A DNA stretch of 64,000 nucleotides from a virus: the IMG/VR virus record IMGVR_UViG_3300030447_000342; one strand, 5' to 3'. The translations under genes were made by a program, and so were the position numbers. Shown here in pieces: positions 11,773 to 56,019 of this stretch. Below the pieces are notes generated by a model. The model was not told where the DNA came from. It made no database searches and was given only the letters and a program-made list of their open reading frames with translations. Within the stretch, counting starts at the first letter, position 1. Each line of letters opens with the position of its first letter.

Positions 11773-11779
11773 TGTTATA

Positions 11780-11920: not shown

Positions 11921-11924
11921 ATTA

Positions 11925-17689: not shown

Positions 17690-17693
17690 AACC

Positions 17694-24224: not shown

Positions 24225-24250
24225 GGAAAAAACCGCCCGCGTAGCGGGCT
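24225..24250 (-). terminator. Rho-independent terminator on the minus strand
   Basis: On the minus strand: GCCCGC tac GCGGGC followed by GGTTTTTTCC. Confidence 0.55.
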
Positions 24251-24349
24251 TCTGGTTTACGAGCATAGTGCCGAATTCTTACTTTTGCCTTTGGCGAAAA
24301 GCTGCTGAAGGAAATATGTATAACAGCAAATCTACAAAGCGGTTGGTCG

Positions 24350-36991: not shown

Positions 36992-37212
36992 TCAGCTTTT
37001 CCTCTTTTCTTTAGTTTTTCACCATATTTCGCAAAAAACACAGCAAACGCGAACGGTGCTGCAACAATCCAGAAAACACCTACCATAATATACCCGTCTT
37101 CGAACCCATTATATTTGTTATATGGTTCTACGATAACGTACAAGCGGCAAAGTGCGAATGTTACAATCGCACCAATGCAGAGGTACAGGAGCACTAAAAG
37201 GACTGTCATCAT
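36988..37212 (-). CDS. Hypothetical small membrane protein
   Basis: 74 aa, two TM helices. Confidence 0.35.
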   Translation of the reverse strand: MMTVLLVLLYLCIGAIVTFALCRLYVIVEPYNKYNGFEDGYIMVGVFWIVAAPFAFAVFFAKYGEKLKKRGKAE

Positions 37213-38414
37213 TCCTCTTCACCCGCCTTAAAGTTATAAATCGGCTTGATGATGGCATCAATAGTCACTGTTGGTTCGACATTGTTTACGATATCATCCA
37301 TACCTTTGTATGCCATCGGGCATTCATCGAGCGTGCTTCTTCCAACAGATGTAGTGTAGATACCCTCCATCTGCTTCTTGAACTCAGAAACTGTGAATGT
37401 CTCTTTCGCCGCGCTGCGGCTCATCAAACGCCCAGCTCCATGCGGGGCAGAGAAGTTCCAGTCTTCATTTCCTTTGCCGGTACACAGCAAACTACCGTCT
37501 CTCATGTTGATAGGAATCAGCAGCCGCTCACCAGCTTGTGCAGAGACCGAGCCCTTGCGAAGAATCATATTCTCTACATCGATGTAGTTGTGAATAGTTG
37601 TAAACTGCTCTTCGACATGGAAGCCCATACCCTTAACAATGGTGTCCATCATTGCTTGGCGGTTAAGTTCAGCAAAACGTTGAGCAATTTTCATGTCATG
37701 GATATACTGCTCAAACAATTCTCCCTCAACGTATGCAAGCTGCTTTGGAACTCCCGGCTTCTTCGCCTTCATGCCTTTAAGAACAGATTGGATTTCTTTT
37801 TGTCTTCCAGCCGCTTTTAACTCGTTGACAACCTCCTCGATTTCTTCCTTGGAATACGAGGTTAACGCCTTGAACGCAGCTTCCTGATAGAAGTTAGCAA
37901 TCTCCAGACCAAGGTGTCTACTACCGGAATGCACCACAATATAGATGTGTCCATCATCATCTTTGTTGGCTTCGATGAAATGATTCCCTCCACCAAGCGT
38001 ACCGATGCTTTTATATGCGCGGTCTACATTGACCATCTTTACACAGCACAGTTCCGACAGGTCGATGCTACTTGCATATCTATGAGCTTCTGTGCGAATC
38101 TCGAAACCGGACGGAACTCCTGCACGAATAACTTTGTCCAGCTTCTGCGGTTCGATATGCGTTTCTTTGATACGGATAGTTTCCATGCCGCATCCAATGT
38201 CAACGCCGACAAGGTTCGGGCAAATCTTATCCTTGATGGTCATCGTGGTTCCGATTGTACAACCAGCCCCAGCATGAATGTCTGGCATCATACGGACTTT
38301 GCTTCCCTCGATGTACGGTTGATTCAAAAGATTGATAACCTGAGAGATAGACTCATTATCGACCACGTCGGTAAACACCTTTGCGACGCCAAACTTACCC
38401 TGTAACTCAAGCAT
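37209..38414 (-). CDS. rtcB: RtcB RNA 3'-phosphate/5'-OH ligase
   Basis: MMPDIHAGAGCTIGTT..NLVGVDIGCGM and the HGAGR motif HGAGRLMSR. Confidence 0.85.
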   Translation of the reverse strand: MLELQGKFGVAKVFTDVVDNESISQVINLLNQPYIEGSKVRMMPDIHAGAGCTIGTTMTIKDKICPNLVGVDIGCGMETIRIKETHIEPQKLDKVIRAGVPSGFEIRTEAHRYASSIDLSELCCVKMVNVDRAYKSIGTLGGGNHFIEANKDDDGHIYIVVHSGSRHLGLEIANFYQEAAFKALTSYSKEEIEEVVNELKAAGRQKEIQSVLKGMKAKKPGVPKQLAYVEGELFEQYIHDMKIAQRFAELNRQAMMDTIVKGMGFHVEEQFTTIHNYIDVENMILRKGSVSAQAGERLLIPINMRDGSLLCTGKGNEDWNFSAPHGAGRLMSRSAAKETFTVSEFKKQMEGIYTTSVGRSTLDECPMAYKGMDDIVNNVEPTVTIDAIIKPIYNFKAGEEE

Positions 38415-40216: not shown

Positions 40217-40771
40217 TTAGGTCACAATACGTCTCCCATCCATGCTCAGGAGCTGTGCAAACGCCTCGTCTTCCTCTTGCTGCTTCTCCACCTCATCATT
40301 CTGGATAGCCACAAACACGACACTGCACATACCGATGAGGTCATCGATGGAGAAATCCTCTTCCTCAATGGTTTCGTCTTCGTCTGGTTCCTCTTCAAGA
40401 GAGTCGAGGAAGTCGTCATCTGCATCGGCGTACTCTTCATCTTCCTCTTCTTCGTCGTCCCATGCGCCGTAGTCATCGCCCCATTCGAGGACATCCTCTT
40501 TGTAGTCTTCGAAGTCATCGTCATCGAGACCATCATAATCAAAGGCGCTGTTACGACGGTAGTAATAGTACCCGCTGGGGAGGTTGCCAAGGAAGTCTCG
40601 GATGTCCCTCCAGCCGTAGTCGGCGATAGCATCGCGGATATCTTCTTCGACGCTGTCATCGTAATCATCATCGTCATAGATGTCCTCACAGACATCGCAG
40701 TCAAAGTCGTTGCAAAAGTCTTTCAGTTCACACCACTCAGTGATATTGTCAATAAATTCATTCCTTGTCAT
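40217..40771 (-). CDS. Extremely acidic (D/E/Y-rich) protein; candidate DNA mimic or anti-restriction protein
   Basis: 184 aa with long runs such as DDDDYDD, EEEEDEEYADADDD and EEEPDEDETIEEED. Confidence 0.5.
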   Translation of the reverse strand: MTRNEFIDNITEWCELKDFCNDFDCDVCEDIYDDDDYDDSVEEDIRDAIADYGWRDIRDFLGNLPSGYYYYRRNSAFDYDGLDDDDFEDYKEDVLEWGDDYGAWDDEEEEDEEYADADDDFLDSLEEEPDEDETIEEEDFSIDDLIGMCSVVFVAIQNDEVEKQQEEDEAFAQLLSMDGRRIVT

Positions 40772-41278: not shown

Positions 41279-41355
41279 TGGTCTGGGTGAGAGGACTCGA
41301 ACCCCCGACATCTTGCTCCCAAAGCAAGCGCACTACCATCTGTGCTACACCCAGA
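41279..41355 (-). tRNA. tRNA-Pro (anticodon UGG), CCA encoded
   Basis: Cloverleaf parsed by hand. Anticodon loop TTTGGGA closed by CTTGC/GCAAG. T-loop TTCGAGT. 3' CCA. Confidence 0.8.
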
Positions 41356-41383
41356 TATAATGGTTTTGTTTCCGAACACACAC

Positions 41384-41444
41384 GCACTACTGATGGGTTC
41401 GAACCATCCTCACCATAAGCATCGCCATCAATGCTTAGTAGTGC
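41384..41444 (-). ncRNA. Aberrant 61-nt tRNA-like element: acceptor stem and T-arm present, only one internal arm, no CCA
   Basis: GCACTAC..AGCA[ttgatggcga]TGCT..GATGG TTCGAAC CCATC..GTAGTGC. Too short for D-arm plus anticodon arm. Confidence 0.3.
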
Positions 41445-41482
41445 GTGCCGGGGCAGAAAGGAAAACGGATATGTCAGTCCGT

Positions 41483-41558
41483 TGGAGCTGGTGACAGGGC
41501 TCGAACCCGCAACCCAGTGAGTACAAATCACTTGCGCTACCAATTACGCTACACCAGC
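41483..41558 (-). tRNA. tRNA-Thr (anticodon UGU), CCA encoded
   Basis: Anticodon loop TTTGTAC closed by AGTGA/TCACT. Acceptor GCTGGTG/CACCAGC. 3' CCA. Confidence 0.8.
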
Positions 41559-41602
41559 GTGCACCCTCGTCTTTCCGAGGTGTCAGCTTTTAGCTAAAAG
41601 GC

Positions 41603-41671
41603 TGCTGATGACTGGACTTGAACCAGCGGCTCGCACTTCCGGTGCTGCTCTACCAACTGAGCTACATCAGC
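41603..41671 (-). ncRNA. Aberrant tRNA-like element with a truncated anticodon arm (4-bp stem, 5-nt loop), 1-nt variable region, no CCA
   Basis: Normal acceptor GCTGATG/CATCAGC, D-arm GCTC AGTTGGTA GAGC and T-arm GCTGG TTCAAGT CCAGT. The anticodon region GCAC cggaa GTGC cannot form a 7-nt loop. Confidence 0.3.
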
Positions 41672-41785
41672 ATAGATACGCCCTGCGCCCGTAGGACTCC
41701 GTGTGCACCCGGCTGTGTCTCTTACAGAGATAACAGTTGAGTGATGAACTAACCGTACAAACGTAAGCATGACCAACAGAGCAGA

Positions 41786-41861
41786 TGGAGCTGGAACTCG
41801 GAGTCGAACCGAGAACCCACGCTGTACGAAAGCGTTACTCTACCAGTTGAGCTATTCCAGC
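41786..41861 (-). tRNA. tRNA-Thr (anticodon CGU), CCA encoded
   Basis: ACGCT TTCGTAC AGCGT anticodon arm. T-arm CTCGG TTCGACT CCGAG. 3' TCCA. Confidence 0.8.
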
Positions 41862-42020
41862 ATAGATGCCATCCTGAAACTATGGCGATGTCATTAACAC
41901 CACCAATACAAACTCACTATGATGGCAGTTTTGATAGCGTGAAAGGAGAATCATGGATAAATCATCGTGGCACAAGGGATTGCAGGGATAGAAAACAAGC
42001 TCTAATGCCGAAGATGATTT

Positions 42021-42095
42021 TGGCAGGGGCAGTAGGATTTGAACCTACGAATAACGGAGTCAAAGTCCGCTGTGTTACCGCTTCACCATACCCCT
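42021..42095 (-). tRNA. tRNA-Gln (anticodon UUG), CCA encoded
   Basis: GCGGA CTTTGAC TCCGT anticodon arm. D-loop AAGCGGTAA. Acceptor AGGGGTA/TGCCCCT. Confidence 0.75.
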
Positions 42096-42213
42096 GTATC
42101 TGCAGGCTCATGCAGCGGCGTCCCGCCAAACCAACCTGTAACCGACTTCCAGAGCAGGCTCTGACGTGTCGTAAAGGCATTTCCTTTAACGCATAATTTA
42201 ATGGTTTCTTACT

Positions 42214-42290
42214 TGGAGCGGCGTACCAGACTCGAACTGGCACCACCGGTTTGGAAGACCGGAGTGCTAACCGTTGAACACCAACACCGC
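42214..42290 (-). tRNA. tRNA-Gly (anticodon UCC), CCA encoded
   Basis: CCGGT CTTCCAA ACCGG anticodon arm. 3' GCTCCA. Confidence 0.8.
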
Positions 42291-42476
42291 ATGGTCGGCT
42301 TCTCGCTTAGATTGTCACACGCTACCGGCAACTACGCTCCGAAAAGTCGTAGCCCCTATTCCGTCAGGTCAAACCGGTCTTGACGCATCAAGACAAGCGC
42401 AGTTTTCAGCAAGCATTTTCATTCTTTGTGAGGTAAGCCGATAATCTCTCACATCAGTTGGGAGCTACCCAACAAC

Positions 42477-42552
42477 TGGCAGGGGTGAATGGATTCGAAC
42501 CACCATCTGACGGTTTTGGAGACCGCTATGTTAGCCATTGCACCACACCCCT
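42477..42552 (-). tRNA. tRNA-Trp (anticodon CCA), CCA encoded
   Basis: GCGGT CTCCAAA ACCGT anticodon arm. Acceptor AGGGGTG/CACCCCT. Confidence 0.8.
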
Positions 42553-42642
42553 TGGCGGAGTGGACAGGACTTGAACCTGCACATCCTTTCGGATTACTCA
42601 CGGTTTAGCAAACCGCTGCCTTACCGTTAGGCTTACCACTCC
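42553..42642 (-). tRNA. tRNA-Ser (anticodon GCU), long variable arm, CCA encoded
   Basis: GCGGT TTGCTAA ACCGT anticodon arm. Long extra arm. Directly abuts tRNA-Trp. Its 5' end overlaps the stop region of the downstream CDS by ~10 nt. Confidence 0.8.
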
Positions 42643-43314
42643 ATCGGGATTACTTTATTATACAGAGCAATAAACTGCTCATTGACCTGCTTGTCCACAT
42701 GATAATGTCCAAAGAACCACCGCTTGAATGTGAGGTCGGAACAAACCCTATCTAAAAAGCTGACCATCGGGTCGTTCTCGTACCAGCTTGCGAGCAGAGT
42801 CTGAACACTCCTTGGCGCACAATGTGTAATTACATAGTCAACTCGCCAATGATTTTGTTCGAGCGCTGCAATCGCTCGTTCCATTTCTTCTCTGGACGGC
42901 ATTTCCTCTTTCCACCATGAGATATGTTCCACGCGATACTCTTTATCAACAGAGCGAGCACCGCCCATGCAGAAGATTTTCTTTCCATCAATCGTGAGCA
43001 CCTGCCCTCTGTCCAGATGATAGATGTCAGGAGCGATTTCACGCACCTTTCCGCCAAATTTGTCAATCAGCGGGAACTGGTAGAGCATATCAAAGTTCTC
43101 ATGGTTGCCATCAATCCAAAGTGTCGTGAAGTTTTTCGCTGTCAGCCAGTCTTGCCACCACATCTCTCGATGCGAACCGTCCCAGCAGAGTCCAAAATCG
43201 CCACATATGATTACGAAATCATTCTTCGTCAATTCCTTTTGTTGTGGGAACTTTGTTGTATTAAGCTTGGCAATATCAATGTTTGCGTGTGTATCTCCAG
43301 TGACATAAATCATG
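42633..43314 (-). CDS. Calcineurin-like metallophosphoesterase
   Basis: MIYVTGDTHAN, ICGDFG and GNHEN metal-binding motifs. AAAGGAA RBS before the Met at 43314. Confidence 0.65.
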
Positions 43315-43579
43315 CTCAGTTCCTTTCTCATCTGCAGTCCATATGTATATTCTGTTCTGGTCTCTTCGTTTATCTCCTGTAGCGACGGGATTTAGATGAG
43401 CTGAAAGCGAGTTCAAATCCCAAGCGGCGATGATGAAATCATTGGGAGACAATGGGTTCGACAGTCGCTCATCGGATGGAGATGACAAGACATCCCGAAT
43501 AGTTTTAATGAGCTGTACAGCGAGCTTAGGCGCCTTCGCAGCAGGCTGCGGGCGGGGAATTGTGCTGTCCAGCAAAGTG

Positions 43580-43630
43580 ATACTTCAGCCTTTGGCGTGA
43601 AGCACATTCCTTACGAAATGTTATTCACTG
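43580..43630 (-). repeat. Copy A of the conserved two-hairpin RNA-like motif, ~300 nt downstream of the RT gene
   Basis: Minus strand: CAGTGAATAA-[ACATTTC GTAA GGAATGT]-GC-[TTCAC-G-CC AAA GGC TGAAG]. A GNRA-tetraloop hairpin followed by a GCC/GGC-capped hairpin. Confidence 0.6.
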
Positions 43631-43735
43631 CAAATGATAATTTGATTATCCTGTAATCTACATTGAGGTAGCTCCCTACGAGGAGGAGCTCCGGCACCCA
43701 GTGACTGGCGTGCGACATCTTTTGGTCGTCTCGTT

Positions 43736-43762
43736 GAATCCATTGTGGCACAATGGATTCAA
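43736..43762. other. Perfect 12-bp hairpin with a 3-nt loop, inside the structured non-coding region between motif copies A and B
   Basis: GAATCCATTGTG gca CACAATGGATTC. Confidence 0.5.
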
Positions 43763-43861
43763 GTGATTCGGGCTGCTCACCGGTGGTTCGCAGCCTCGAA
43801 GGATGACTTGAGTCTGCAGGTGAATGCGCCTCCGGGGAGGTTTTCCTCCCTATCAAGTTGT

Positions 43862-43912
43862 TACTTATGCCTTTGGCGATAAGCATTGCTTTCGCAATTA
43901 TGCATTACAGGA
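43862..43912 (-). repeat. Copy B of the two-hairpin motif, 20 nt downstream of the RT stop codon
   Basis: Minus strand: CTGTAAT-GCATA-[ATTGC GAAA GCAAT]-GC-[TTATC-G-CC AAA GGC ATAAG]-TAACAA. Confidence 0.6.
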
Positions 43913-43932
43913 TTGCGGGTTATTTATAGACG

Positions 43933-45069
43933 TTACCGCAGGTCGTCCTTCATCATGCGGATTACATCCACATTCATTTTCTTGTTGATGTAAGCTACAA
44001 TTGCGTCGATGGTCTCTTTTTCGACCATACGATAATAGCTATGCAGACCATACATTACCTGTACATCATTCCGCTCCCAAGCGACACCATTGTTCTTATC
44101 TGTGATGTAATTGTACAGCATTGACTGGAACTGCTTTTTCTTTTTATGACCGACCGTAATCTCGTTGTCCTTATTCAGCATAACGCCAAGATTCCAGTTG
44201 CGCCCCGCTGATGAACCATACCGAGTCTTGCTTGCATTGATTGTGAATGGGGCACCAAAACTGCTCAATGTACTTACTACCAGCTCTTCAACAGAGCGAA
44301 CATCAAAATCATACTTGGATGAAATAATGAAGTCATCCGCATATCTGGTATAAATGAAGCTCTGTTTTTCAAAATTACGGAGCGTATTCGACAGTTTGAA
44401 ATCAACCGGAATCATCATTACGTTTGTGATGAGCGGTGAAATTGGGGTGCCCTGCGGTAGCCCACCATTTAAGAACGCTAACGACATAGCTGTCCGCAAT
44501 GCTGCCTCGCCCTGTGGCTCTTTTACAATCTCACTAAAAGGAAAAACCATCGAGAACATTGAGATGGCATAATCCAATGTTGTGCTGCCAAAAAAGTCGT
44601 GCAGGTCAAGCTTTGCGAACCATTTGCTGCTGTTCTTCTGGTGACGCTTAACCGCATCGACTGTACTCCGCTTCTTTACATAAGCAAACGCGGCAGTATG
44701 ATAGAGTGCATGGAAATCATCCTCGAAAATCGTTTTGAGTCTTCTCAAGGCGTCCATCAGCTCTGCCTTTGGCGCATCGATTCTACGAAGACCACCAGAT
44801 TTCTTTGGGATGTAAAAGGTCTCATACAACTCGCTCCGTTCCTTTGCACGAAGCTCTGCTGTATCGTTATTAAATCGCACGAGTTTTCCGATTAAAGCTT
44901 CAACACCAATCTTGCTGGAAAAATGTTCACTGACATTTTCGACCTCGTATGTTCTTGTGTTTGCAATATTGGCATTGACAACCGGAGGTGTCTGATAGTT
45001 TTGAAACAGGTACTCTTCCAGTGTCATCTGATGATAAATCGGTGACTGCCTAACAGTGATATAGACCAT
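43933..45069 (-). CDS. Reverse transcriptase. Retron/group-II-like RT motifs, no maturase or endonuclease domains, and no DGR-type SQ motif.
   Basis: FYIPKKSGGLRRIDAP (RT motifs 1-2). AYVKKRSTVDAVKRH (region 2a, NAxxH-like). LDLHDFFGS (motif A). LPQGTPISPLITN (motif B', QGxxxSP). YTRYADDFIISS (motif C, YADD). FTINASKTRYG and NLGVML (motifs 6-7). AAGGAGG RBS. Confidence 0.8.
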   Translation of the reverse strand: MVYITVRQSPIYHQMTLEEYLFQNYQTPPVVNANIANTRTYEVENVSEHFSSKIGVEALIGKLVRFNNDTAELRAKERSELYETFYIPKKSGGLRRIDAPKAELMDALRRLKTIFEDDFHALYHTAAFAYVKKRSTVDAVKRHQKNSSKWFAKLDLHDFFGSTTLDYAISMFSMVFPFSEIVKEPQGEAALRTAMSLAFLNGGLPQGTPISPLITNVMMIPVDFKLSNTLRNFEKQSFIYTRYADDFIISSKYDFDVRSVEELVVSTLSSFGAPFTINASKTRYGSSAGRNWNLGVMLNKDNEITVGHKKKKQFQSMLYNYITDKNNGVAWERNDVQVMYGLHSYYRMVEKETIDAIVAYINKKMNVDVIRMMKDDLR

Positions 45070-45095
45070 TTCTTCCCCTCCTTGTCCAATAACTA

Positions 45096-45104
45096 ACTGT
45101 AACC
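45096..45104. repeat. Short inverted repeat ACTGTAACC, just upstream of the RT start, complementary to the CGTTACAGT segment of motif copy C (a1/a2-like)
   Basis: rc(ACTGTAACC) = GGTTACAGT versus CCGTTACAGT at 45429-45438: 8 of 9 nt match. Confidence 0.3.
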
Positions 45105-45388
45105 TACATATGTCTGCTGCTTCCCAGAATTCCTAAGTCTGAAGACTACGTCGTCCCTGTGGGAGGTGGTGCGAGCTCTTGCAAGATGCGAGATTTTTTT
45201 TCTTTGATTTCATTGCGACTGAAAGCATGAGTCTGATGTTAGCACATTTCGTCCTTGTATCGAAGATTTGGCGAAAAGTGCTTGACATTTGGTTTGCTTT
45301 ATGGCGTGATGCTGCCGACCCGTGGCAGCCGGTTTGCTTTCAGGGTTCCACCGCGTCATCCTCCGGGGGTCATCCTCCCGACAATTTG

Positions 45389-45439
45389 TTACTTTAGCCT
45401 TTGGCGTAAAGCTCTCTTACGAGAAAATCCGTTACAGTC
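45389..45439 (-). repeat. Copy C of the two-hairpin motif, ~320 nt upstream of the RT start
   Basis: Minus strand: CTGTAAC-GGATT-[TTCTC GTAA GAGA]-GC-[TTTAC-G-CC AAA GGC TAAAG]-TAACAA. Confidence 0.6.
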
Positions 45440-45441
45440 TG

Positions 45442-45462
45442 TGGCGCATTAAGGCTGCGCCA
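45442..45462. other. Perfect 7-bp hairpin whose loop contains the stop codon of the upstream gene, immediately 5' of motif copy C
   Basis: TGGCGCA ttaaggc TGCGCCA. The TAA stop (rc of tta at 45449-45451) lies in the loop. Confidence 0.5.
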
Positions 45463-46255
45463 TACCTAATAATTCAAACAGTTCTTCGTCCGTAAAGACA
45501 TTTTGAGTTGTGAATGGCTTGATGAAAAACACGCCGTCCTCTCGTTGTTCGACAATCGTGTCAGGGCTCAACGTGCACACCGGTCTTACCCCGGAACAGC
45601 TTGATGCTGTCAGCCTGTTTAACACACCAGAGCGATTCGAAATCGCCGCTCTTTCGGTCTCAACATCGTCTAACAGCCAGAAGCTCATAAATCCACGGTC
45701 TGAATCAAGCCCTGCATAACGAGCTTTCAGGTCGAACAAGTCGGCTGTCGGATTCGGACGAATGCCTTTTCTTTTGAATAAGTCAAAGCGCCGCCCATCT
45801 TGGAGGCTAAAAATGTCTGCAATTGATGGTAGGCGAATCAACGAAGACACTCGGTTCTCTCCGACCACATACTCTTTCCTAACCAAAGAAGCAATCTCGT
45901 GGTCTTCAAAGAAATACAGAAACCCGTAATGGTCTTCATAGCGAGCATAACTATACCTCACAAAGGCACCGGGCGAAGAATCATTATCGTGCATTGCGTG
46001 ATACCACATCATCTGGTCACTGTTCAAGAACGAAAACAGATTTGACACTGGATACTTCGCATTATTAACACGCCTATAATGCCCAGTCTCTTCCGCCGCA
46101 TCGAAGCACAGGTAGTCGATAGCTTTTTCTGTGATAAAATCACAGTTTGGATTGCCTTTCAGCCAAACAATCGGGTACGGGTTGTCTTTGTCCACACCGT
46201 ACTTGCCCATCACGAGTTGTGCGCCAACCTTGAGAGCACCAACGGTCGTGTCCAT
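45449..46255 (-). CDS. Hypothetical protein (268 aa) immediately upstream of the RT-associated non-coding region
   Basis: ORF with a good start context. No recognised motif. Not a detectable DGR variable protein (no VR/TR pair found). Confidence 0.45.
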   Translation of the reverse strand: MDTTVGALKVGAQLVMGKYGVDKDNPYPIVWLKGNPNCDFITEKAIDYLCFDAAEETGHYRRVNNAKYPVSNLFSFLNSDQMMWYHAMHDNDSSPGAFVRYSYARYEDHYGFLYFFEDHEIASLVRKEYVVGENRVSSLIRLPSIADIFSLQDGRRFDLFKRKGIRPNPTADLFDLKARYAGLDSDRGFMSFWLLDDVETERAAISNRSGVLNRLTASSCSGVRPVCTLSPDTIVEQREDGVFFIKPFTTQNVFTDEELFELLGMAQP

Positions 46256-46288
46256 ACCTTACCCCCCTCCCTTCGTTCTTTTTGAAAA

Positions 46289-46966
46289 TTAAAACGCATC
46301 CAGCAGCGGCTGGAATGCGTCACAAATAATCAGCTTATTCAGCCCCTTGCCCCTGATGTACTTGACGAAGTTGCTCACACCCAGAGCACAAATCACTCTG
46401 ACCGTAGTGACAACACCAAGCGTAATGCCGCAAGCTGAGACTGGAGTTTCTTCCGCCGCCTCATCGTGTGTAAAATTCATGGAGTTGAGGAGGTCTTTCT
46501 TCATCTTGTAGTCAGACCAATCAGCAGCATAGTGCTGACCAGCCTCCAGCAGAGTTCTGAAATCAAACATCGCCTTTACATACGGATTGTCGAAGTGTTT
46601 CTCAACAATCTTTTTTCTCAGCTCGATGTTATCAACGCACAAGAACACATAGCCGGATAACTGCTGCCCGTTCCACCCATCCTTGTAAAGCTTCAGGTCA
46701 TCCTTAACATCAGGATTGATGTCGAAAAGAATATCCGCCAATGCCTCGACCTTAGAGCGCCCAATGTCCTGCTGACGGAAAATCTGATTTGCCAGATTGT
46801 GCGGACTTACTGTGTCCATATCCCACAGTGCGATGTTCGTGAGTCCTAAGCGAACCAGTAGCTCCGCAACCGTCGCGCCGACAGAACCACACCCGACGAT
46901 ATGGATTCTACAATCAACCTTCTCGGGCTGGAAATATTCATAGCTCTTTGACAGGTCAATAGCCAT
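46289..46966 (-). CDS. E1-like ThiF/MoeB-family adenylyltransferase
   Basis: Rossmann motif RIHIVGCGSVGATVAELLVRLG. LWDMDTVSPHNLANQ (D.D.V..SNLNRQ-like). Confidence 0.7.
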   Translation of the reverse strand: MAIDLSKSYEYFQPEKVDCRIHIVGCGSVGATVAELLVRLGLTNIALWDMDTVSPHNLANQIFRQQDIGRSKVEALADILFDINPDVKDDLKLYKDGWNGQQLSGYVFLCVDNIELRKKIVEKHFDNPYVKAMFDFRTLLEAGQHYAADWSDYKMKKDLLNSMNFTHDEAAEETPVSACGITLGVVTTVRVICALGVSNFVKYIRGKGLNKLIICDAFQPLLDAF

Positions 46967-46967
46967 A

Positions 46968-47900
46968 TTACTTACCTCCTAAGTATGCATAAGGGTCGTA
47001 GTCATCTTCGTCTTCCCAGCCATGCATTGATTCTTGGCAGGCATTCTGTCCATGCCAACCAGCGCCAATTCTGGTTCTGGGTTTCTCTCCCTCGTTCTTT
47101 TTACCAGATGACTTATCCTTGTTTTCTTCTTTCTTACTGTCCTTCTTGTCGTCGGACTTACCTGCAAGTGGATTGTACGGAGTACCAGCCGGAGCTCCCC
47201 TGTATCCCTGATTGTAGTAACCGCCGTATCCGCTCTGACCGCCATACGCATAGGACTTTGACTTCACCATATCCTTCGCGTTTTTGATAAACTCATCAAG
47301 TCCTTCATTCTGACCGATAATCTTGACCGTGATATCTTTATCCTCAAACATCACGTTCTTCTTGAGGTCATAGATTTTATTTGTGCTTGCAAATGACTTG
47401 TTCCAAATCATAAAGATGTAGAAGTCATTATCGCCAAGCATCCCGAGGATTTCCTCTTGATGATTGAGGTCAACAGAGGATGGAGACGTACCCATATTTA
47501 CATGAGAATGTCCCTGCATATAGATGTGGTTGAAACGCTCATCTTCGATGTTTTCCTGAATCCACAGAGCATATTTCTCGGTGTCCATCTCAACCGTTGC
47601 GCCGGTTACCTCCTGCGGATAGACAACGATGTCATCGATGACATACTCGTCAAGCGATTCATCTTCAGTTCGACGTGCGACACCATGCCATGCGACCTCT
47701 TTATCGAACTCTTTGATAAGCATAGTCATCTTTGCCCACGCCTCTGCGCTGAAGTAAACTACTGCCTTTCTGTCACCACATGAGAACGCTTTGGTAAAAG
47801 AAAGCTTTCCATCCGAGAGCTTTGTAAGTGACAAAGCCTTCTCAAAATCTTGACGGCACTCATCAATGAGTTCCTGCGTCAACTTAATTGGTCTGCTCAT
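46968..47900 (-). CDS. JAB/MPN (JAMM) metalloprotease-domain protein with a low-complexity G/Y/K-rich C-terminus ending ..YLGGK
   Basis: JAMM motif HIYMQGHSHVNMGTSPSSVDLNHQ (H-x-H-x7-S-x2-D) with an upstream Glu in AWHGVARRTEDE. Confidence 0.65.
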   Translation of the reverse strand: MSRPIKLTQELIDECRQDFEKALSLTKLSDGKLSFTKAFSCGDRKAVVYFSAEAWAKMTMLIKEFDKEVAWHGVARRTEDESLDEYVIDDIVVYPQEVTGATVEMDTEKYALWIQENIEDERFNHIYMQGHSHVNMGTSPSSVDLNHQEEILGMLGDNDFYIFMIWNKSFASTNKIYDLKKNVMFEDKDITVKIIGQNEGLDEFIKNAKDMVKSKSYAYGGQSGYGGYYNQGYRGAPAGTPYNPLAGKSDDKKDSKKEENKDKSSGKKNEGEKPRTRIGAGWHGQNACQESMHGWEDEDDYDPYAYLGGK

Positions 47901-49377
47901 TTTGCGCCTCCTCCGTCTGCTCATCCTTTGCCTCCTGCTCATCAAGCCATCTAATTGCTTCGTTCGGCTTTACAACGCGACCATCTGGCAACTCAATACA
48001 ACGACTGACCGTGTTATTTGACCACATGGTTCTCATAAACTCGCCCATAACTGCACTGTCGCCGAAGTTCAGACTCTTACAGGACGCAATACACTGCTCA
48101 AGTGCACCGATATAATTTCGTTTTCTCAGCAGTTCATTGATAGTCCTGCTGTAATTGCCCATGCAATGATAACGGTCAATATGCGTATTAGGCATATAAC
48201 CATCAAATGTGTAATCAGAAAAATCACCAGTCTGCGCAGAAACACTACCATTCAGGTCGAATCTATATGCTGCGCAAAAGCGGATTCTAAGCCGAGGATT
48301 TTCACTTACGAAAATCTCCTGCATCAGCTTCTGCATTTTCTCTGAAGCTGCCGCATTGTGACCGTTGCCACCATCCGGTCGATACACATAACTGCTTCTA
48401 TTGTTGATTGCTCGCTCAGCCATATCTCTGTCAAAGTATTCAAGGTAGTCTTTAACCGAGAAATACATATCCGTATTGCTAACATGAGACAGGACAAGTC
48501 TGTTGTTGCAGAGGAAATAATCCATGATTTCAGAGTCTCCACCGCCCTCTGCAATTCTTTGCTCAAGTCCCAACAATCTGATGCACTTGTCATTGCGGCG
48601 CGACAGATACGCGCCGATAGAATCATTGAGTCGCTGAATCTCCATGTCAATAGATTGGATTTCATTGCGAACAGTATCACATTCGATGCGCTCATATCTG
48701 GTTTCAAAATCACCCAGTAACTGACGAATCCGCGCTGTTCTGAAATCATATCCCTCGGCAAGCTTTGCAATGCACTTCTCATAGTTTGCTGAATTTGTTT
48801 CTCGCAAAGATTGCATCAATGCAAGCTCATCTTCTGTCAAACCATCATCCTGATTCAGATACCACGGCATGAATGCAAGAATAGATACCTGAAGATAATG
48901 CATTTTCTTAACATCAAGATTGTCAACGAAGACAATCACCGACTTCTTGTCAGGGTTGATATAACAATCAACATTGAATGACTTCCGATAAAACGCTTTG
49001 ACCTTATCAAGACGGTGATACTCTGGGTAGATAGAAGTAAACTTGTCCTCCACAATCTGCATACAAGCCAGATTGCTATTTTGGTCAGCATTGAAGCTAT
49101 GAACTATGAGCGCACCGCTGGCATTCATTTGATAACTGCTACAGATAGCACTAACCGCACGTTCTGCTGGAACGTTACGGATAGTGTTCCCATCATAATT
49201 GGTCGAACCGAAAGTCAGGTAAACACTTTCGTCCTCTTTGATTCGAGGTGCAACCAGTGCACGAAGCGTTGAAAGGAACGAACAGTCATTGCCAAAATAG
49301 CTTCCGGTAATGTTCTGAAAAAAGCTATTAGCCGCCTCTGACGTAAACGGTGTCGATGTAATGCTTGTCTTGAACAC
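47884..49377 (-). CDS. Hypothetical protein (497 aa), first gene of the JAB / E1 / 268-aa / RT string
   Basis: Long ORF, no motif recognised. Overlaps the JAB gene start. Confidence 0.5.
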   Translation of the reverse strand: MFKTSITSTPFTSEAANSFFQNITGSYFGNDCSFLSTLRALVAPRIKEDESVYLTFGSTNYDGNTIRNVPAERAVSAICSSYQMNASGALIVHSFNADQNSNLACMQIVEDKFTSIYPEYHRLDKVKAFYRKSFNVDCYINPDKKSVIVFVDNLDVKKMHYLQVSILAFMPWYLNQDDGLTEDELALMQSLRETNSANYEKCIAKLAEGYDFRTARIRQLLGDFETRYERIECDTVRNEIQSIDMEIQRLNDSIGAYLSRRNDKCIRLLGLEQRIAEGGGDSEIMDYFLCNNRLVLSHVSNTDMYFSVKDYLEYFDRDMAERAINNRSSYVYRPDGGNGHNAAASEKMQKLMQEIFVSENPRLRIRFCAAYRFDLNGSVSAQTGDFSDYTFDGYMPNTHIDRYHCMGNYSRTINELLRKRNYIGALEQCIASCKSLNFGDSAVMGEFMRTMWSNNTVSRCIELPDGRVVKPNEAIRWLDEQEAKDEQTEEAQNEQTN

Positions 49378-49403
49378 AGAAACACCTCAATTCATTTTTA
49401 TCT

Positions 49404-49488
49404 TGGTGGGGAATATCGGATTTGAACCGATACGGCATACGCCAACAGAACTTAAATCTGTTGTGTCTTCCAATTCCACCAATTCCCC
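49404..49488 (-). tRNA. tRNA-Leu (anticodon UAA), long variable arm, CCA encoded
   Basis: ACAGA TTTAAGT TCTGT anticodon arm. Extra arm GGCGTATGCCGTATC. Confidence 0.8.
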
Positions 49489-49530
49489 ATGAAAAGAGCC
49501 GCCCCATGAAGGGCGGCTCTAATCTAAAAC

Positions 49531-49758
49531 TTAGGCGTTGTCCGCCTTAACGACATTCAGCAGGAAGCACTTCTCGGTAATGCCGAACTGCTGGAAGGTC
49601 TTATCGAGGTCGCCGGGGTTCAGAGAAGAACCATCGAGGTGCATGACACCACGAGTGTAATCAACGCCGTTTGCCTCAAGGCAGGAGCGCAGGGTGGTAT
49701 TCTCATCGATGATGACAGCCTCACGCTTAACATTGTTGCCAACAGTAACCTTAATCAT
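49531..49758 (-). CDS. Hypothetical small protein
   Basis: 75-aa ORF between tRNA genes. Confidence 0.35.
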   Translation of the reverse strand: MIKVTVGNNVKREAVIIDENTTLRSCLEANGVDYTRGVMHLDGSSLNPGDLDKTFQQFGITEKCFLLNVVKADNA

Positions 49759-49831
49759 TATGTATTCTCCTTTTATTCGTTTTTTGTTTTTTGGGTGGTG
49801 GGGCGGCTATGCCGCCCCGTTGCAGTGTCTC

Positions 49832-50230
49832 TTACTGAGCGACAGTGATGTTGCTCATCACGGTTGCCTTCTCAGCCGCAATCTCTTCGAGAACAGTGGG
49901 GAGCTTCTCTTCGAGCTTGTTGAGGTTGATGATGGCAGCGCCGAGGCGGTCAGCGACCCAATCCTTCACATCGCCGGTAACACCGTCGAGGAACAGGGTG
50001 ATGCACGCCAGCTTGTCATCGTCACGGGTCTCGGAGCCGAAGGATGCGCCAACTGCGTTGATATTGCCTGCACCATGAGTGGTGCCGACACCGAAGATGG
50101 GCTCCTTGCCATCCTCGCCGCCCTTCAGGACGAGCTCCTTGGGACGATACTTCTCGATGGTCTTGATGTCCTCAAGCTTCATTGCGGAAGTGACGACGAC
50201 TGCGTCGCCTGCGATAACGATTTTTGCCAT
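49832..50230 (-). CDS. Hypothetical protein
   Basis: Probable start MAKIVIAGDA with an AAGGAG RBS. GC-richer segment. Confidence 0.4.
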   Translation of the reverse strand: MAKIVIAGDAVVVTSAMKLEDIKTIEKYRPKELVLKGGEDGKEPIFGVGTTHGAGNINAVGASFGSETRDDDKLACITLFLDGVTGDVKDWVADRLGAAIINLNKLEEKLPTVLEEIAAEKATVMSNITVAQ

Positions 50231-50404
50231 GTGTATGTACTCCTTGATTTCAAATGTACCCCTATTAGTTCGTCTTACGACTATCCGCCCACACCACGAG
50301 GAGGTTGGAGCCATTGTGGACATAAAACCACTGAAGCAACTGCCCCAGTGGTTATGGTTTTATCTTGCACCACTTCCGTGGTGCTGATACTTTTGATACA
50401 CAGA

Positions 50405-51064
50405 TTAGAAACTGAAAGCCGGGGCGACGCCACAGGAACTCCTTGCGCCGTTACGGTCCGCGCCGCCGTTCGCGCCCACACCGCAGAAGGCGCCGCTGAT
50501 GCCGTAACTAGGAGAACGCAGCATAGTGTACTCAGCGGAACCATTACGCTTCTTGCCCCAAGGGACATCTTCTTGCCGGTAATATTCGTACCAATGACCT
50601 TCGCCCGGTGCCGAATAGATGTTCCGTCCAAAGGTTTCTTTTTCAGACTTAATCCAAAACTTGCACTCCGTTTCGAGCAATTCGTTCGCTCCGTCATAGG
50701 TGTTTGCAGTAAGCTTGATTACTGGTTCGACCACCTCAAGAATCTCGTCTGGCATGAGCTGGTAAATTACGCCATCTTCGTCGTTCATCTTATGGAACAG
50801 CTCTGTTGCACCCCAAGAGCCTCTGTTTGTGTCGTTGCTATTCCAACGATGCCGGTTTGGAAGGCAGTCAACCATCTCCCAAGTTAGTGGGAGGATACGA
50901 CCACTTTTTGTAACATCGTGTTTGAATCCAATGATACGGAACTGAACCAGTGTATCGTCTTTTAATCTGACGTTTTTGAAATCGCCTAATCTAAGGAAGT
51001 CGGGTGCCATATCCCCAAGCCCCTTCAGCGAACGCCACGGCATATTATCCAAACATTCAGGCAT
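50405..51064 (-). CDS. Hypothetical protein
   Basis: 219-aa ORF. Confidence 0.45.
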   Translation of the reverse strand: MPECLDNMPWRSLKGLGDMAPDFLRLGDFKNVRLKDDTLVQFRIIGFKHDVTKSGRILPLTWEMVDCLPNRHRWNSNDTNRGSWGATELFHKMNDEDGVIYQLMPDEILEVVEPVIKLTANTYDGANELLETECKFWIKSEKETFGRNIYSAPGEGHWYEYYRQEDVPWGKKRNGSAEYTMLRSPSYGISGAFCGVGANGGADRNGARSSCGVAPAFSF

Positions 51065-51092
51065 ATGTTACCTCCGTCCATAATCATTTAGT

Positions 51093-51182
51093 TGGCGGGG
51101 AGTGTAGGATTCGAACCCACGGACGGCTTTCACCGCCAACGGTTTTCAAGACCGCCACCATAAGCCACTCGGTCAACTCCCC
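51093..51182 (-). tRNA. tRNA-Ser (anticodon UGA), long variable arm, CCA encoded
   Basis: GCGGT CTTGAAA ACCGT anticodon arm. Acceptor GGGGAGT/ACTCCCC. Confidence 0.8.
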
Positions 51183-51199
51183 AAATAAAAAGAGACGGG

Positions 51200-51862
51200 T
51201 CATTCGCCCGTCTCAGTCTCAGTTTCATCTTCTTCATCTTCCGGCTCATCCACGCCATCGATATCATATTCATCATACGGAAACTCTGTAAAGACTTCAC
51301 AGCCGCTTTCTTTTTCCGTTATAATCATCGGTCGATAGATATGGAAACCGTAATCTTCTGAAAGCTCTTTCAAAAATCCATCAAGGATTTCATCGACAGC
51401 TTCATAGCCATACGCTTCTAAGATATTTGTTCCGTCGTTGTCACCCTCCTGCAGCGCGATTGCGAGGAAATCTGCCATAGCCAAACGGAGTTCATCATCT
51501 CGCTCATACATAGCATCCTCTATGTCCATCCATGTTTCATCGCTTTCTTCTTTGCCGCCATCTGGATTATCTCCCGGAACATACTTGTTGTCTGTAATCA
51601 CAACAGGAAAGAGATAGCGTGTGTAGAATTTCTTCGACACCGCTGTACAGTCCTCCTCACTCACGCAAGGTTCTTTGTACTCAATTTTTTCGTTGCCCTT
51701 TGCAACAGCCAAAACTGGGAGGTCGTTTTCCTCGGTAAGATACACGGCATACTCCGTGTCGGTGTTCTCAGCAATGAGAACCATTTCTTTGTTCAAACGT
51801 TTTCTGCTTGCTTGGAAAAACCCCCATACTGCATCAGCGGGGATATGAATATGAACTCCCAT
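51200..51862 (-). CDS. Hypothetical protein with a highly acidic C-terminus
   Basis: Start MGVHIHIP with an AAGGAGG RBS. The track's longer ORF reads through the tRNA-Lys gene and is rejected. Confidence 0.45.
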   Translation of the reverse strand: MGVHIHIPADAVWGFFQASRKRLNKEMVLIAENTDTEYAVYLTEENDLPVLAVAKGNEKIEYKEPCVSEEDCTAVSKKFYTRYLFPVVITDNKYVPGDNPDGGKEESDETWMDIEDAMYERDDELRLAMADFLAIALQEGDNDGTNILEAYGYEAVDEILDGFLKELSEDYGFHIYRPMIITEKESGCEVFTEFPYDEYDIDGVDEPEDEEDETETETGE

Positions 51863-51888
51863 AAGGAACCTCCTTATATATTTGACTT

Positions 51889-51964
51889 TGGTACTCCCGA
51901 CGAGGCTCGAACTCGTGACCCCAGCATTAAAAGTGCCGTGCTCTACCAACTGAGCTACGGAAGT
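51889..51964 (-). tRNA. tRNA-Lys (anticodon UUU), CCA encoded
   Basis: CGGCA CTTTTAA TGCTG anticodon arm. T-arm CACGA GTTCGAG CCTCG. Confidence 0.8.
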
Positions 51965-52135
51965 ATATTGACCGGCTATTACGGTATGCCCAGAAAGGTG
52001 GACACGCTTGAGTTCCACAAACAGTTTTGCCCGCAAAAGATGGAGGTGAATATTTGATGGAGGTGTTTATCTTAATGCAGGTACGAAGAAAGGAACTTAC
52101 AAATGAACGAAGGACACGCGCATGGCAAAACTGTC

Positions 52136-52219
52136 TGGTGCAGGATAAGAGACTTGAACTCTTACGCCGGAGGCAGCGGGACTTGAATCCGCCGTGTCTG
52201 CCAATTCCACCAATCCTGC
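52136..52219 (-). tRNA. tRNA-Leu (anticodon CAA), type II with a long variable arm, CCA encoded; A:C mismatch closing the anticodon stem
   Basis: GCGG(A) TTCAAGT (C)CCGC anticodon arm. Extra arm CTGCCTCCGGCG. T-arm AAGAG TTCAAGT CTCTT. Confidence 0.65.
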
Positions 52220-52226
52220 ATATTTC

Positions 52227-52427
52227 TTATATCCAACCAGCTAATACTGCGATTGTTGTCACACTCAAAACGGTTAGTACAATGTTGTCATACACTATTC
52301 GGTTGTGGAGATTTTTGCTTGCTCGCTCAACCTTTCTTTGGAGTCGCTCAATTTCTTCGTTTTTGCTTTCGCGCTCAAATTTGTATTTGCACCACGCTTC
52401 GCCTGATATGAAGTCACCACGCTCCAT
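52227..52427 (-). CDS. Hypothetical small protein with a C-terminal TM helix
   Basis: 66-aa ORF. Confidence 0.3.
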   Translation of the reverse strand: MERGDFISGEAWCKYKFERESKNEEIERLQRKVERASKNLHNRIVYDNIVLTVLSVTTIAVLAGWI

Positions 52428-52455
52428 GTTTATACCTCCTTACCAAAGTCATGTT

Positions 52456-52782
52456 TTATCGAATGCCGTCTACCCACAACTCTAACGTGCGACGATTTGC
52501 GTACTGTTTACAGAGTTCTTCGATGGATACACCATGTGCCTTTGCATCCGTTTTCATTGCCGTAAACTGGTCTCTGTATTTTTTGACCATCTTTTCAACG
52601 GCAAGAAAATGCTCTTTGTCTTTAGGATAGAAGGCAATATCATCAAGGCAGACACTGCTTATATCTCCCGTGTGGCAAATTACTTTCCAGCAATTTTTGC
52701 ATGGCGCATCATCTATGCTCACCATATGATTGATGCAGTCACTGCAGTGGACAACCACTCCATTTACCTTAATTGGTTTCAT
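52456..52782 (-). CDS. Hypothetical Cys-rich protein
   Basis: 108 aa; CSDCINH and CKNCWKVICH cysteine cluster. Confidence 0.4.
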   Translation of the reverse strand: MKPIKVNGVVVHCSDCINHMVSIDDAPCKNCWKVICHTGDISSVCLDDIAFYPKDKEHFLAVEKMVKKYRDQFTAMKTDAKAHGVSIEELCKQYANRRTLELWVDGIR

Positions 52783-52804
52783 TGGTTGCTCCTCCTTTTA
52801 TGAG

Positions 52805-52880
52805 GTGGTGGAGATAGCCGGACTCGAACCGGCGACCCTCTGCTTGCAAAGCAGATGCTCTCCCAGCTGAGCTATACCCC
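52805..52880 (-). tRNA. tRNA-Ala (anticodon UGC) with the G3:U70 identity pair, CCA encoded
   Basis: GGGGGTA TA GCTC AGCTGGGA GAGC; TCTGC TTTGCAA GCAGA; acceptor 3' TATCTCC A CCA. Near-identical architecture to bacterial tRNA-Ala. Confidence 0.85.
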
Positions 52881-53007
52881 CATACTTTACGGCATAAAAC
52901 CCAAGTCAACTCCGCCGTTTGATGTTCCCCACACTAATACCTCAATGCTTCGGATTGCATCAATAAGCCTTGCGCTCCGATACCCAAGGAATGAACATCG
53001 TTCCCAC

Positions 53008-53087
53008 TGGCGCCGAGAGCCGGTCTTGAACCGCCATTATAGCCTGATGTTGACAGCGCTATGTTTTACCAATTAAACTACCTCGGC
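53008..53087 (-). ncRNA. Aberrant tRNA-like element: normal acceptor, D- and T-arms, but an extended 8-bp bulged anticodon stem with loop UCAACAU; CCA encoded
   Basis: GCCGAGG TA GTTT AATTGGTA AAAC; ATAGC-g-CTG [tcaacat] CAG-GCTAT; T-arm GGCGG TTCAAGA CCGGC with one G:G mismatch; GCCA end. Confidence 0.3.
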
Positions 53088-53450: not shown

Positions 53451-53670
53451 TTTACAGTGATATTTCACCAGAACCAAGCCGACGTTCATCTTATGTCGCT
53501 TGGTTGCAGTGACTCTTTTCATCATAATTTGATTTTGTAAAACCCATTACAAAAAAATAGACAGCTTAGCAGGCTGGAGCCAAATTCTTTTTTACTTTAC
53601 TTATCTGTATTTGGCGAAAACAGAGAAGGCATATGATTCAGGGTTTTCGGACGGCAGCGAAGTTGATTGC

Positions 53671-55605: not shown

Positions 55606-56019
55606 TTACACCTCCCGCAATTTTTTATGGGAGAAGGTTTTACCTCAATAGGTTCGGGCGCGACTCCGAAAACTATTTTCAACTCCAACCTTCCAAGGAT
55701 GCACTTTCATGTTTGTTTTCAACTCCCACGCGGTGGCAGCATTTCCTCCACTTGAACACTTTCGTAGTCCCGCACGCCCCGTAATGGCTTTCAGATTTTG
55801 GATGCCTCCTCACTTACCTTCACCAATACAGGGTCTAAGCGTTAGGTGAGTTGTGCGCACAGGGTTCACATCCCATTAAACCCACCCCACGGAATCGTAC
55901 CGTGCCAGCCTTACGACATCGAACCTCGCTTTAGCGTGAACCAAACCCGACCAACAATCAGGTAGATTCCGCCATACCCATACCACCGGAGTTCAAGGAA
56001 CCCCGGAAAACCGAGCTGT

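Follow-up and report, generated by a model that had tools for sequence, protein, structure and literature searches.

BilABCD is a bacterial ISG15-like anti-phage system (Hör et al. 2023, preprint 10.1101/2023.09.04.556158; Chambers et al., PMC10557695), encoded by an operon with the genes for a ubiquitin-like protein (Ubl), an E2, a JAB deubiquitinase and an E1, in this order. E1 chemistry is also combined with a JAB isopeptidase in Cap2/Cap3 of CBASS, the anti-phage system that signals through cyclic oligonucleotides, and a minimal E1, a small beta-grasp protein and a JAB protein are found in sulfur-carrier pairs (ThiF/MoeB-ThiS/MoaD, CysO-Mec+) and, as a Ubl plus JAB pair, in TAPI/TAPK of phage lambda (PMC1779556). 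For viruses, the nearest report concerns E1-like genes alone in Asgard archaeal viruses; in the literature searched, the coverage of which was incomplete, there was no report of a complete phage-encoded Ubl conjugation cassette, nor of one coupled to a reverse transcriptase (RT). Here, we describe a locus with features of all these systems on a 64,000-nucleotide (nt) stretch of viral DNA, further called the window (IMG/VR virus record IMGVR_UViG_3300030447_000342), in which a preliminary description, made from the sequence alone, had pointed out adjacent genes for a ThiF/E1-like protein and a JAB metalloprotease next to an RT gene. These two genes probably form the enzymatic core of a full phage-encoded Ubl conjugation cassette with a small modifier, an E2-like protein, a JAB protein and an E1, and a protein conjugation pathway run by the phage itself is the most likely reading of the locus.

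All four component types lie contiguously on the minus strand in the order Ubl (75 amino acids, aa), E2-like protein (497 aa), JAB and E1 (225 aa), the order of BilABCD. They belong to a conserved block, consisting of a 132-aa protein, Ubl, E2, JAB, E1 and the RT with an associated noncoding RNA (ncRNA), that is common to two phage sublineages with no other flanking genes in common. The six genes are the following.

49832-50230, minus strand: 132-aa protein, directly preceding the Ubl gene in all complete loci of the two sublineages (alignment A6)
49531-49758, minus strand: 75-aa Ubl with a predicted beta-grasp fold (structure model, conservation)
47884-49377, minus strand: 497-aa putative E2-like protein (AlphaFold2 model, invariant residues)
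46968-47945, minus strand: JAB/MPN+ (JAMM) metalloprotease (invariant motif)
46289-46966, minus strand: 225-aa minimal E1 with a ThiF-type adenylation domain (Pfam PF00899)
43933-45069, minus strand: 378-aa retron-related RT, last gene of the block (Pfam RVT_1, 9.9e-20)

In the window's own sublineage, the block is syntenic with the genes for HU, a radical-SAM protein, a metallophosphatase and others. The second sublineage, reached via MT835544 (L068), an unannotated entry and the only phage relative in GenBank, comprises phages of 140-150 kb with proteins 23-55% identical to those of the window; here, all six genes are kept in the same order in 44 of the 44 complete loci and the window's other flanking genes do not occur within 7 kb of the block. 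Independent sampling through an unrelated neighbour gene, p232, recovered the full module in 26/26 loci with a p232 identity of at least 70% and in 0/14 loci of more distant phages. As the same partners recur in the 44 loci of the second sublineage and in the 26 loci sampled through p232, the adjacency of E1 and JAB is not a matter of chance. The identity of the E2-like protein ranges from 23 to 88% across lineages, the module having diverged together with its phages. Related contigs are IMG/VR viral contigs of 125-150 kb and contigs of metagenome-assembled genomes that carry the same block and come for the most part from Clostridia bins, among them an Acutalibacter muris assembly. The lineage hosting the module is a large group of 125-150 kb phages of gut Clostridia.

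The assignment of the 225-aa protein to the ThiF/E1 family, already made in the preliminary description, was borne out by its match to Pfam ThiF PF00899 (E=1.9e-24, 86.5 bits, cut-off 28.1) and by profile matches to active adenylation domains in the PDB, those of Uba1, UBA5, UBA6, UBA7, MoeB, MccB and Cap2 (1e-15 to 1e-8) and of ThiF. Invariant in its alignment (A4) are the GCGxxG motif (GCGSVG), D49, K72, D112 and Cys179 in TPVSAC, the candidate cysteine, situated in the crossover-loop region. The protein reaches no NCBIfam family cut-off: the best matches are of the ThiF/MoeB type, score far below their cut-offs and cover mainly the N-terminal nucleotide-binding part, and with 31.7 bits against a cut-off of 144.75 for TIGR03736 (PRTRC_ThiF) it falls outside the PRTRC family.

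The JAMM motif of the neighbouring protein is equally real. Its sequence GHSHVNMGTSPSSVD corresponds to HxHx7Sx2D (HSHx7SxxD) with an upstream Glu in EVAWHG. All five residues, E68, H131-x-H133, S141 and D144, are kept without exception in alignments reaching down to 35% identity; they are numbered from the probable start, the ATG at 47900 (MSRPIKL), where the gene overlaps the end of E2. The N-terminus of the protein is rich in Lys/Arg and its C-terminal tail is of low complexity. In the PDB, the JAB profile matches a single family, Rpn11, over the whole MPN domain and with the motif in register but at a weak E=0.03 and 0.11; the PADLOC JAB model matches at E=0.0026 and there is no Pfam match. 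The YLGGK end, regarded earlier as suggestive of a processed Gly-Gly terminus, is present in the window but is part of the variable tail, as homologs end in HFGR, AWSVR, GAWRG, SGSGR, YRVYS or AFGYR.

A separate Ubl gene had been missed, and a fused or very small Ubl had been considered instead. Such a gene does exist 154 nt upstream of the 497-aa gene, outside the region that had been delimited, as an open reading frame (ORF) of 75 codons. A model built from an alignment of 26 homologs (predicted local distance difference test, pLDDT, 90.5) consists of a beta-grasp domain with a flexible C-terminal tail, and on this basis we confidently predict a ubiquitin-like beta-grasp fold for the protein. 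With about 1900 homologs, it is the most conserved gene product of the neighbourhood, retaining 84-100% identity where its neighbours fall to 50-70%. The core of the protein ends in ...VVK-A-[D/T]-N-A (...VVKADNA in the window, with the variants KADNA, KATNA and KMDNA), and in some homologs the core Ala is followed by a short variable extension (HQ, AA, A, LN, QN, HPLSAVKA, LAA). Ala75 is therefore likely to be the reactive C-terminus, and the combination of end and extensions matches a precursor that is trimmed by a deubiquitinase. About 12 BilA homologs have comparable overhangs of 2-9 aa after the reactive residue, there a Gly, and BilC removes such a residue. Judged by its conservation, invariant core end and extensions, the 75-aa protein thus appears to behave like a conjugatable modifier. 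Profile searches of Pfam, NCBIfam, PHROGs, PADLOC and the PDB, distant family members included, gave no sequence match for it.

The same searches, likewise with distant family members, gave no match for the 497-aa protein, the family of which comprises 2121 clusters at 50% identity, nearly all of full length and none annotated. Its AlphaFold2 model (pLDDT 86.3; predicted template modelling score, pTM, 0.50) consists of an N-terminal alpha/beta domain, a helix of about 50 residues (224-276) and a C-terminal alpha/beta domain (about 283-460) resembling ubiquitin-conjugating (UBC) and RWD domains, with the elements in the UBC order: a helix, two beta-hairpins split by a helical insertion, a loop and three helices. 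The comparisons listed for this domain are the RWD domains of Knl1, listerin, Spc24/25, GCN2, RNF25 and RWDD3, the E2-like domain of FANCL, Ubc12 and UBE2C. Foldseek of the whole model against the PDB gave no significant match, and neither did hhalign of both domains against canonical E2 sequences. In an alignment of proteins 22-64% identical to that of the window, a single loop, P396-[N/Q]-x-H399-x5-C405, holds the sole invariant Cys and the sole invariant His of the entire sequence, and the spacing from Asn to Cys equals that in the HPN...C motif of canonical E2s. Cys405, with His399 and Pro396, is a candidate E2 catalytic site, and we assign the E2 fold to the protein, from its model, with moderate confidence. 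Structure prediction, proposed earlier as a means of finding a beta-grasp or E2 fold among the flanking proteins, thus gave an E2-like fold for the 497-aa protein and a beta-grasp in a separate ORF; the 268-aa flanking protein, also considered, turned out not to be a core part (see below).

In a Xanthomonas jumbo phage, PhiXhv-12 (L119, PV764601, 3280-6654), we observed a 227-aa ThiF protein, 27% identical to the window E1, adjoining an 892-aa protein in which a coiled coil precedes IHPH-x10-SLCLG, a motif like the HPN...C motif of E2s. This 892-aa protein has no profile link to the 497-aa protein and no JAB or Ubl gene is adjacent.

By homology with known pathways, the cassette would operate as follows. 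The JAB protein would trim Ubl precursors with a short C-terminal extension, exposing the ...KADNA end. The ThiF-type E1, probably a homodimer, would adenylate the carboxylate of Ala75, after which the Ubl would be held as a thioester on Cys179 of the E1 and subsequently on Cys405 of the E2-like protein. The large N-terminal domain and coiled coil of the latter could form a built-in substrate adaptor, the Ubl being moved to lysines of target proteins; that the N-terminal half picks the targets is speculative. Finally, the JAB protein may also remove the mark and so recycle the Ubl.

Several observations weigh against this interpretation. The Ubl lacks the Gly required at the C-terminus in Bil and in classical Ubls, the sequence matches of the JAB protein are statistically weak (E 0.003-0.1), and, except for the sampling through p232, loci were found via genes of the module, which makes its constant presence partly circular. 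The E1 has an invariant Asn60 in place of the NLxRQ arginine (NLANQ), shows no N-terminal RxxRQ helix (the sequence reads SYEYFQP) and, in sublineage 2, carries a Phe instead of Arg64. Because of these replacements, canonical adenylation chemistry is not assured, and the missing arginines are the main chemical uncertainty. As to the Ubl end, a C-terminal Ala is accepted by the related E1/E2 of CBASS, Cap2, and occurs naturally in some CBASS cGAS proteins (PMC10097602).

Next to gene order, the cassette shares with BilABCD a Ubl with a ubiquitin-like beta-grasp fold, and the suggestion that an E1 and JAB pair marks a conjugation and deconjugation system of the Bil kind was supported by the presence of a Ubl and a putative E2-fold protein in the BilABCD order. 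The differences are, however, considerable. Bil resides in bacterial defence islands, whereas this cassette is phage-encoded and fixed in a phage lineage. The phage Ubl is a single beta-grasp domain ending in Ala (KADNA) instead of Gly, and the phage E1 is a single adenylation domain of 225 aa, whereas BilD combines an inactive and an active domain with an inserted Cys domain with a Zn site. With 497 aa, an extra N-terminal domain and a coiled coil included, the phage E2 exceeds BilB threefold in size. At the sequence level, no similarity is detectable, PADLOC, Pfam and NCBIfam matching neither the Ubl nor the E2, and two further genes are obligatorily linked, those of the 132-aa protein and of the RT with its ncRNA. 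The cassette is hence not a member of Bil: although it would work like Bil, its Ubl does not end in Gly, its E1 is built differently and its sequences do not place it there.

A resemblance to CBASS extends to the substrate, the C-terminus of which may be Ala there too, and to the N-terminal nucleotide-binding part of the E1, which matches Cap2-type E1-E2 models of PADLOC (4e-17, a generic match over 70 residues) as well as Cap2 chains in the PDB. In contrast to CBASS, E1 and E2 are separate proteins, a dedicated beta-grasp Ubl would be conjugated instead of a nucleotidyltransferase, and the block contains no CD-NTase or effector; the Cap2/Cap3 option of the preliminary description was accordingly dropped, no E1-E2 fusion or CD-NTase being present among the eight neighbouring proteins scanned. 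Compared to the sulfur-carrier pairs and to lambda TAPI/TAPK, the cassette has no Gly-Gly end and no sulfur-transfer partners but does have an E2-fold protein, and, unlike TAPI/TAPK, it is not located in a tail-assembly context, nor is its JAB domain fused to NlpC/P60. The cassette is not CBASS, Bub, PRTRC or a ThiS/MoaD pathway.

The earlier remark that a phage-encoded pair next to an RT is unusual holds: the RT itself belongs to the conserved block of six genes and follows the E1 gene in all complete loci of both sublineages. Its best family matches are retron RTs (NCBIfam retron St85, E=2e-51; PADLOC RT_II-A, 6.6e-46). The 380-nt gap upstream of the RT gene is structured across loci, and similar elements, which resemble retron ncRNAs and measure 240-340 nt, are found elsewhere in the window.

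45093-45434, minus strand: nc1, a retron-ncRNA-like element filling the 5' untranslated region (UTR) of the RT gene (alignment A7, covariation)
43648-43914, minus strand: nc2, downstream of the RT gene, closing stem CCTGTAAT/ATTACAGG, fold z-score -7.5
about 43335-43625, minus strand: nc3, ending at the ATG of the metallophosphatase gene
24110-24345, minus strand: nc4, 20 kb away, closing stem AACCGCTTT/AAAGCGGTT, fold z-score -4.7

In nc1, a 5' arm CTGTAAC and a G are followed by two small hairpins, a variable body and the 3' arm GTTACAG, which lies just before the ribosome-binding site (RBS) of the RT gene. The arms of this closing stem are complementary and covary across more than 130 loci, for example as ACTGTAAC/GTTACAGT, GAATTGTAAC/GTTACAATTC, TACTGTAAT/ATTACAGTA, CTGTATT/AATACAG and GTCTGATAC/GTATCAGAC, and as ATCGTGAT/ATCACGAT in sublineage 2. 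The G after the 5' arm is present in eight loci of sublineage 1 (A7), in nc2 and nc3 of the window and in two loci of sublineage 2, and the hairpin GCTTnnCGCCAAAGGCnnAAGTA shows compensatory changes between copies. A search of the window for the hairpin motif returned 4 copies against 0.03 expected, and the copies linked to the RT and metallophosphatase genes end just before the RBS or start codon of the next gene. On its own, nc1 folds no better than its shuffled versions (z -0.5 to -1.6), so that the case for an ncRNA rests on covariation and on the other copies. There was no match in Rfam.

As in retrons, a structured ncRNA is thus positioned directly upstream of the RT gene, its ends pair like a1/a2 with a G following the 5' arm, and non-RT 'effector' genes are genetically coupled to the RT. 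In contrast to retrons, the RT scores under the family cut-off (175 vs 235 bits), the body of the ncRNA consists of several hairpins instead of one long msd stem, there are four copies per RT, and the associated genes form a Ubl conjugation set, which was not found with any retron type in the searched literature. The VTG motif of retron RTs reads NLG in the window. A diversity-generating retroelement was considered as well, since the DUF6273 proteins near the block end like C-type-lectin targets; it was rejected, as no template/variable pair emerged from a search for repeats and the RT resembles those of retrons.

If the chemistry is right, the balance tips modestly towards a module that works to the benefit of the phage in the cell it infects, with host or phage proteins as the tagged targets, and away from swappable defence cargo. 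This role is favoured by the fixation of the module, by its co-divergence with the phage and by neighbours that include RtcB, RNA ligase, tRNAs and NAMPT. Under the same proviso, inter-phage exclusion is less probable but keeps appreciable weight.

Among the alternatives, the one that survives best is a Bil-type anti-phage defence or superinfection exclusion system carried by a temperate phage, in which the RT and ncRNA sense infection and the Ubl is conjugated to virion proteins of rivals. The closest structural neighbours of the Ubl and the E2 are BilA and BilB, components of a defence system with the same gene order, the best matches of the RT are retron families known as defence systems and the RT is inseparable from the cassette; moreover, a serine recombinase/integrase in the window makes lysogeny possible, and prophages often carry defence systems. 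However, unlike mobile defence cargo, the module is fixed instead of patchy (26/26 independently sampled loci) and has co-diverged with its phages (23-88% identity for E2). It is also co-oriented within a region of replication, tRNA and repair genes and not placed in a variable hotspot, and four ncRNA copies, of which at least those at the RT and metallophosphatase genes occupy 5' UTRs, are not the layout of a retron defence system. We consider this alternative possible though rather doubtful as a whole, and Bil-like exclusion gated by the RT as the serious alternative to a module serving the phage.

A sulfur-carrier pathway (ThiS/MoaD/CysO-Mec+ or TtuB), in which a thiocarboxylate on the Ubl would be used for thiolation of, for instance, phage tRNAs and the JAB protein would be the maturation protease, is unlikely. 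Operons with JAB, E1 and ThiS-like sulfur-transfer genes are known (PMC1779556). The E1 is minimal and single-domain like ThiF and MoeB, to which its best NCBIfam matches belong, and the phage invests heavily in tRNA biology. Yet those NCBIfam scores are all far below cut-off and concern mainly the N-terminal part, the Ubl has no Gly-Gly terminus, and sulfur transfer has no use for a conserved E2-fold protein of 497 aa that contains an invariant Cys. No rhodanese or other sulfurtransferase, cysteine desulfurase or thiolase/PP-loop partner was present among the eight neighbouring proteins scanned, so the sulfur-carrier option raised in the preliminary description was abandoned as well.

Equally improbable is a modification by the E1 of the C-terminus of the 75-aa protein or of another substrate in the manner of MccB or PaaA, or a joining of the Ubl to a non-protein target such as a lipid or the multicopy single-stranded DNA (msDNA) of the RT, with the 497-aa protein as a scaffold: MccB and PaaA are among the PDB matches of the E1, which is without the canonical Arg residues, the E2 assignment is moderately supported, the tight linkage to the RT and ncRNA invites a nucleic-acid connection and the Asn-Ala end of the Ubl recalls the C-terminal Asn of MccA, but the 75-aa protein is a folded beta-grasp protein under strong purifying selection and not a short peptide precursor, the neighbouring proteins scanned contain no export, immunity or peptidase set of the type seen with ribosomally synthesized and post-translationally modified peptides, and the invariant Cys/His loop of the 497-aa protein favours catalysis over a scaffold.

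Returning to the conserved block, its remaining member, the 132-aa protein directly upstream of the Ubl gene, has no match in Pfam, PHROG, NCBIfam, PADLOC or the PDB. The mechanically called ORF extends to 50323, the conserved start being MAKIVIAG. A candidate, speculative role for this protein is that of substrate, adaptor or regulator. In the Acutalibacter muris assembly GCA_948693885.1 (L069, a 223-kb contig), the pair of a 131-aa protein and the Ubl is duplicated (9120-9831 and 17269-17980); the two copies encode identical protein sequences 8 kb apart, and the duplication is seen in three independent assemblies (L069, L070, L071). Other elements around the cassette are listed below.

49800-49818, minus strand: second GC-rich hairpin, upstream of the Ubl RBS
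49491-49519, minus strand: GC-rich hairpin with a U-run, terminator-like as read from the sequence, directly after the Ubl stop codon
49404-49488, minus strand: tRNA-Leu(UAA), predicted by ARAGORN, between the Ubl and E2 genes
45449-46255, minus strand: 268-aa accessory protein (Pfam DUF6273, E=6.6e-4, below cut-off; PHROG 10993 'Hoc-like head decoration', E=2.6e-14)

Both hairpins bracketing the Ubl gene are built from the same GGGGCGGC/GCCGCCCC arms and the downstream one abuts the tRNA-Leu; speculatively, they could allow the Ubl to be produced in larger amounts than the enzymes. Scans for promoters and terminators were uninformative. The tRNA-Leu was rejected as a part of the module, being found at this site in L016 and absent from L037, L066, L073 and L075.

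The 497-aa (47884-49377) and 268-aa (45449-46255) ORFs flanking the E1 and JAB genes, as well as the RT gene (43933-45069), are all on the minus strand, as originally described. The 268-aa protein was rejected as a core part because it is missing from many loci (L037, L062, L064-L068 and all of sublineage 2). It has no PDB match and no clear relation to the DUF6273 neighbour p219, together with which it flanks the module as one of two DUF6273-like proteins (50405-51064 and 45449-46255, both on the minus strand). The 268-aa protein has a conserved C-terminal motif, (T/D)EELFELLG(M/V)AQP, and the 219-aa protein closes with a stretch rich in Gly/Ala/Asn. A 184-aa protein of very acidic composition, which may be a DNA mimic, is encoded 3 kb downstream in the window (40217-40771, minus strand) and between JAB and E1 in some genomes (L062 11459-11989, L064 9478-10029, L065 6088-6636).

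The large phage genome carries the region within an array of genes co-oriented on the minus strand. Further products of the window are a DnaE-type DNA polymerase, 45-47% identical to those of Firmicutes phages (e.g. of Thomasclavelia, Clostridioides and Bacillus), a DnaB helicase, DNA and RNA ligases, RtcB, a CCA-adding enzyme, NAMPT and a serine recombinase, besides 13 tRNAs. The genes for CCA-adding enzyme, RNA ligase, DNA ligase, NAMPT and RtcB (15331-16677, 29702-30787, 33017-34291, 35501-36991 and 37209-38414), together with the 13 tRNAs at 41279-53087, make up a dense tRNA-repair and NAD-salvage set that looks like a counter-defence toolkit against tRNA-cleaving and NAD-depleting host systems. 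The serine recombinase/integrase (21483-22640, minus strand; PHROG 95 at 1.8e-93) suggests a temperate or phage-plasmid lifestyle. Between 58001 and 60000, the GC content jumps to 0.56 (elsewhere 0.44-0.49) and the AT skew is strongly negative. A RAGATH-36 RNA was identified at 55751-55907 on the minus strand (134 bits, E=3e-28, well over the gathering score), and a RAGATH-27-like match at 53578-53661 on the same strand is sub-threshold (42.7 bits). In MT835544, a tandem array of at least 8 small paralogous proteins of 81-101 aa (1928-2443 and 9511-12280) was observed, every member of which ends in a ...DEMFE...C-x-C-x-SLL motif.

There is a substantial chance that the coupling to an RT makes the cassette more than a variant of the Bil kind. 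Tentatively, and with less confidence than for the cassette itself, the RT with its multi-copy ncRNA and the Ubl-E2-JAB-E1 set may work together as a single machine that is fixed in a major lineage of Clostridia phages from the human gut and uses an Ala terminus on the Ubl. If so, this would be the first case of ubiquitin-like conjugation coupled to an RT and also the first of a bacteriophage running a complete Ubl conjugation pathway, in which the product of the RT might gate or direct tagging, or the RT/msDNA complex might itself be tagged. The obligatory link to a retron-like RT with several ncRNA copies raises a new question on the role of RTs in phage genomes. Annotation currently overlooks such systems, as Pfam recognises none of four of the six module proteins (Ubl, E2, JAB and the 132-aa protein). 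Prokaryotic Ubl conjugation, as in Bil, Bub and CBASS Cap2/3, has so far been described as a weapon of bacteria against phages, whereas here a virus carries a full and widespread kit. If the phage uses it to tag host or phage proteins, this would mirror the way in which eukaryotic viruses exploit ubiquitin and would offer a tractable minimal system, with a 225-aa E1 and a 75-aa Ubl ending in Ala.

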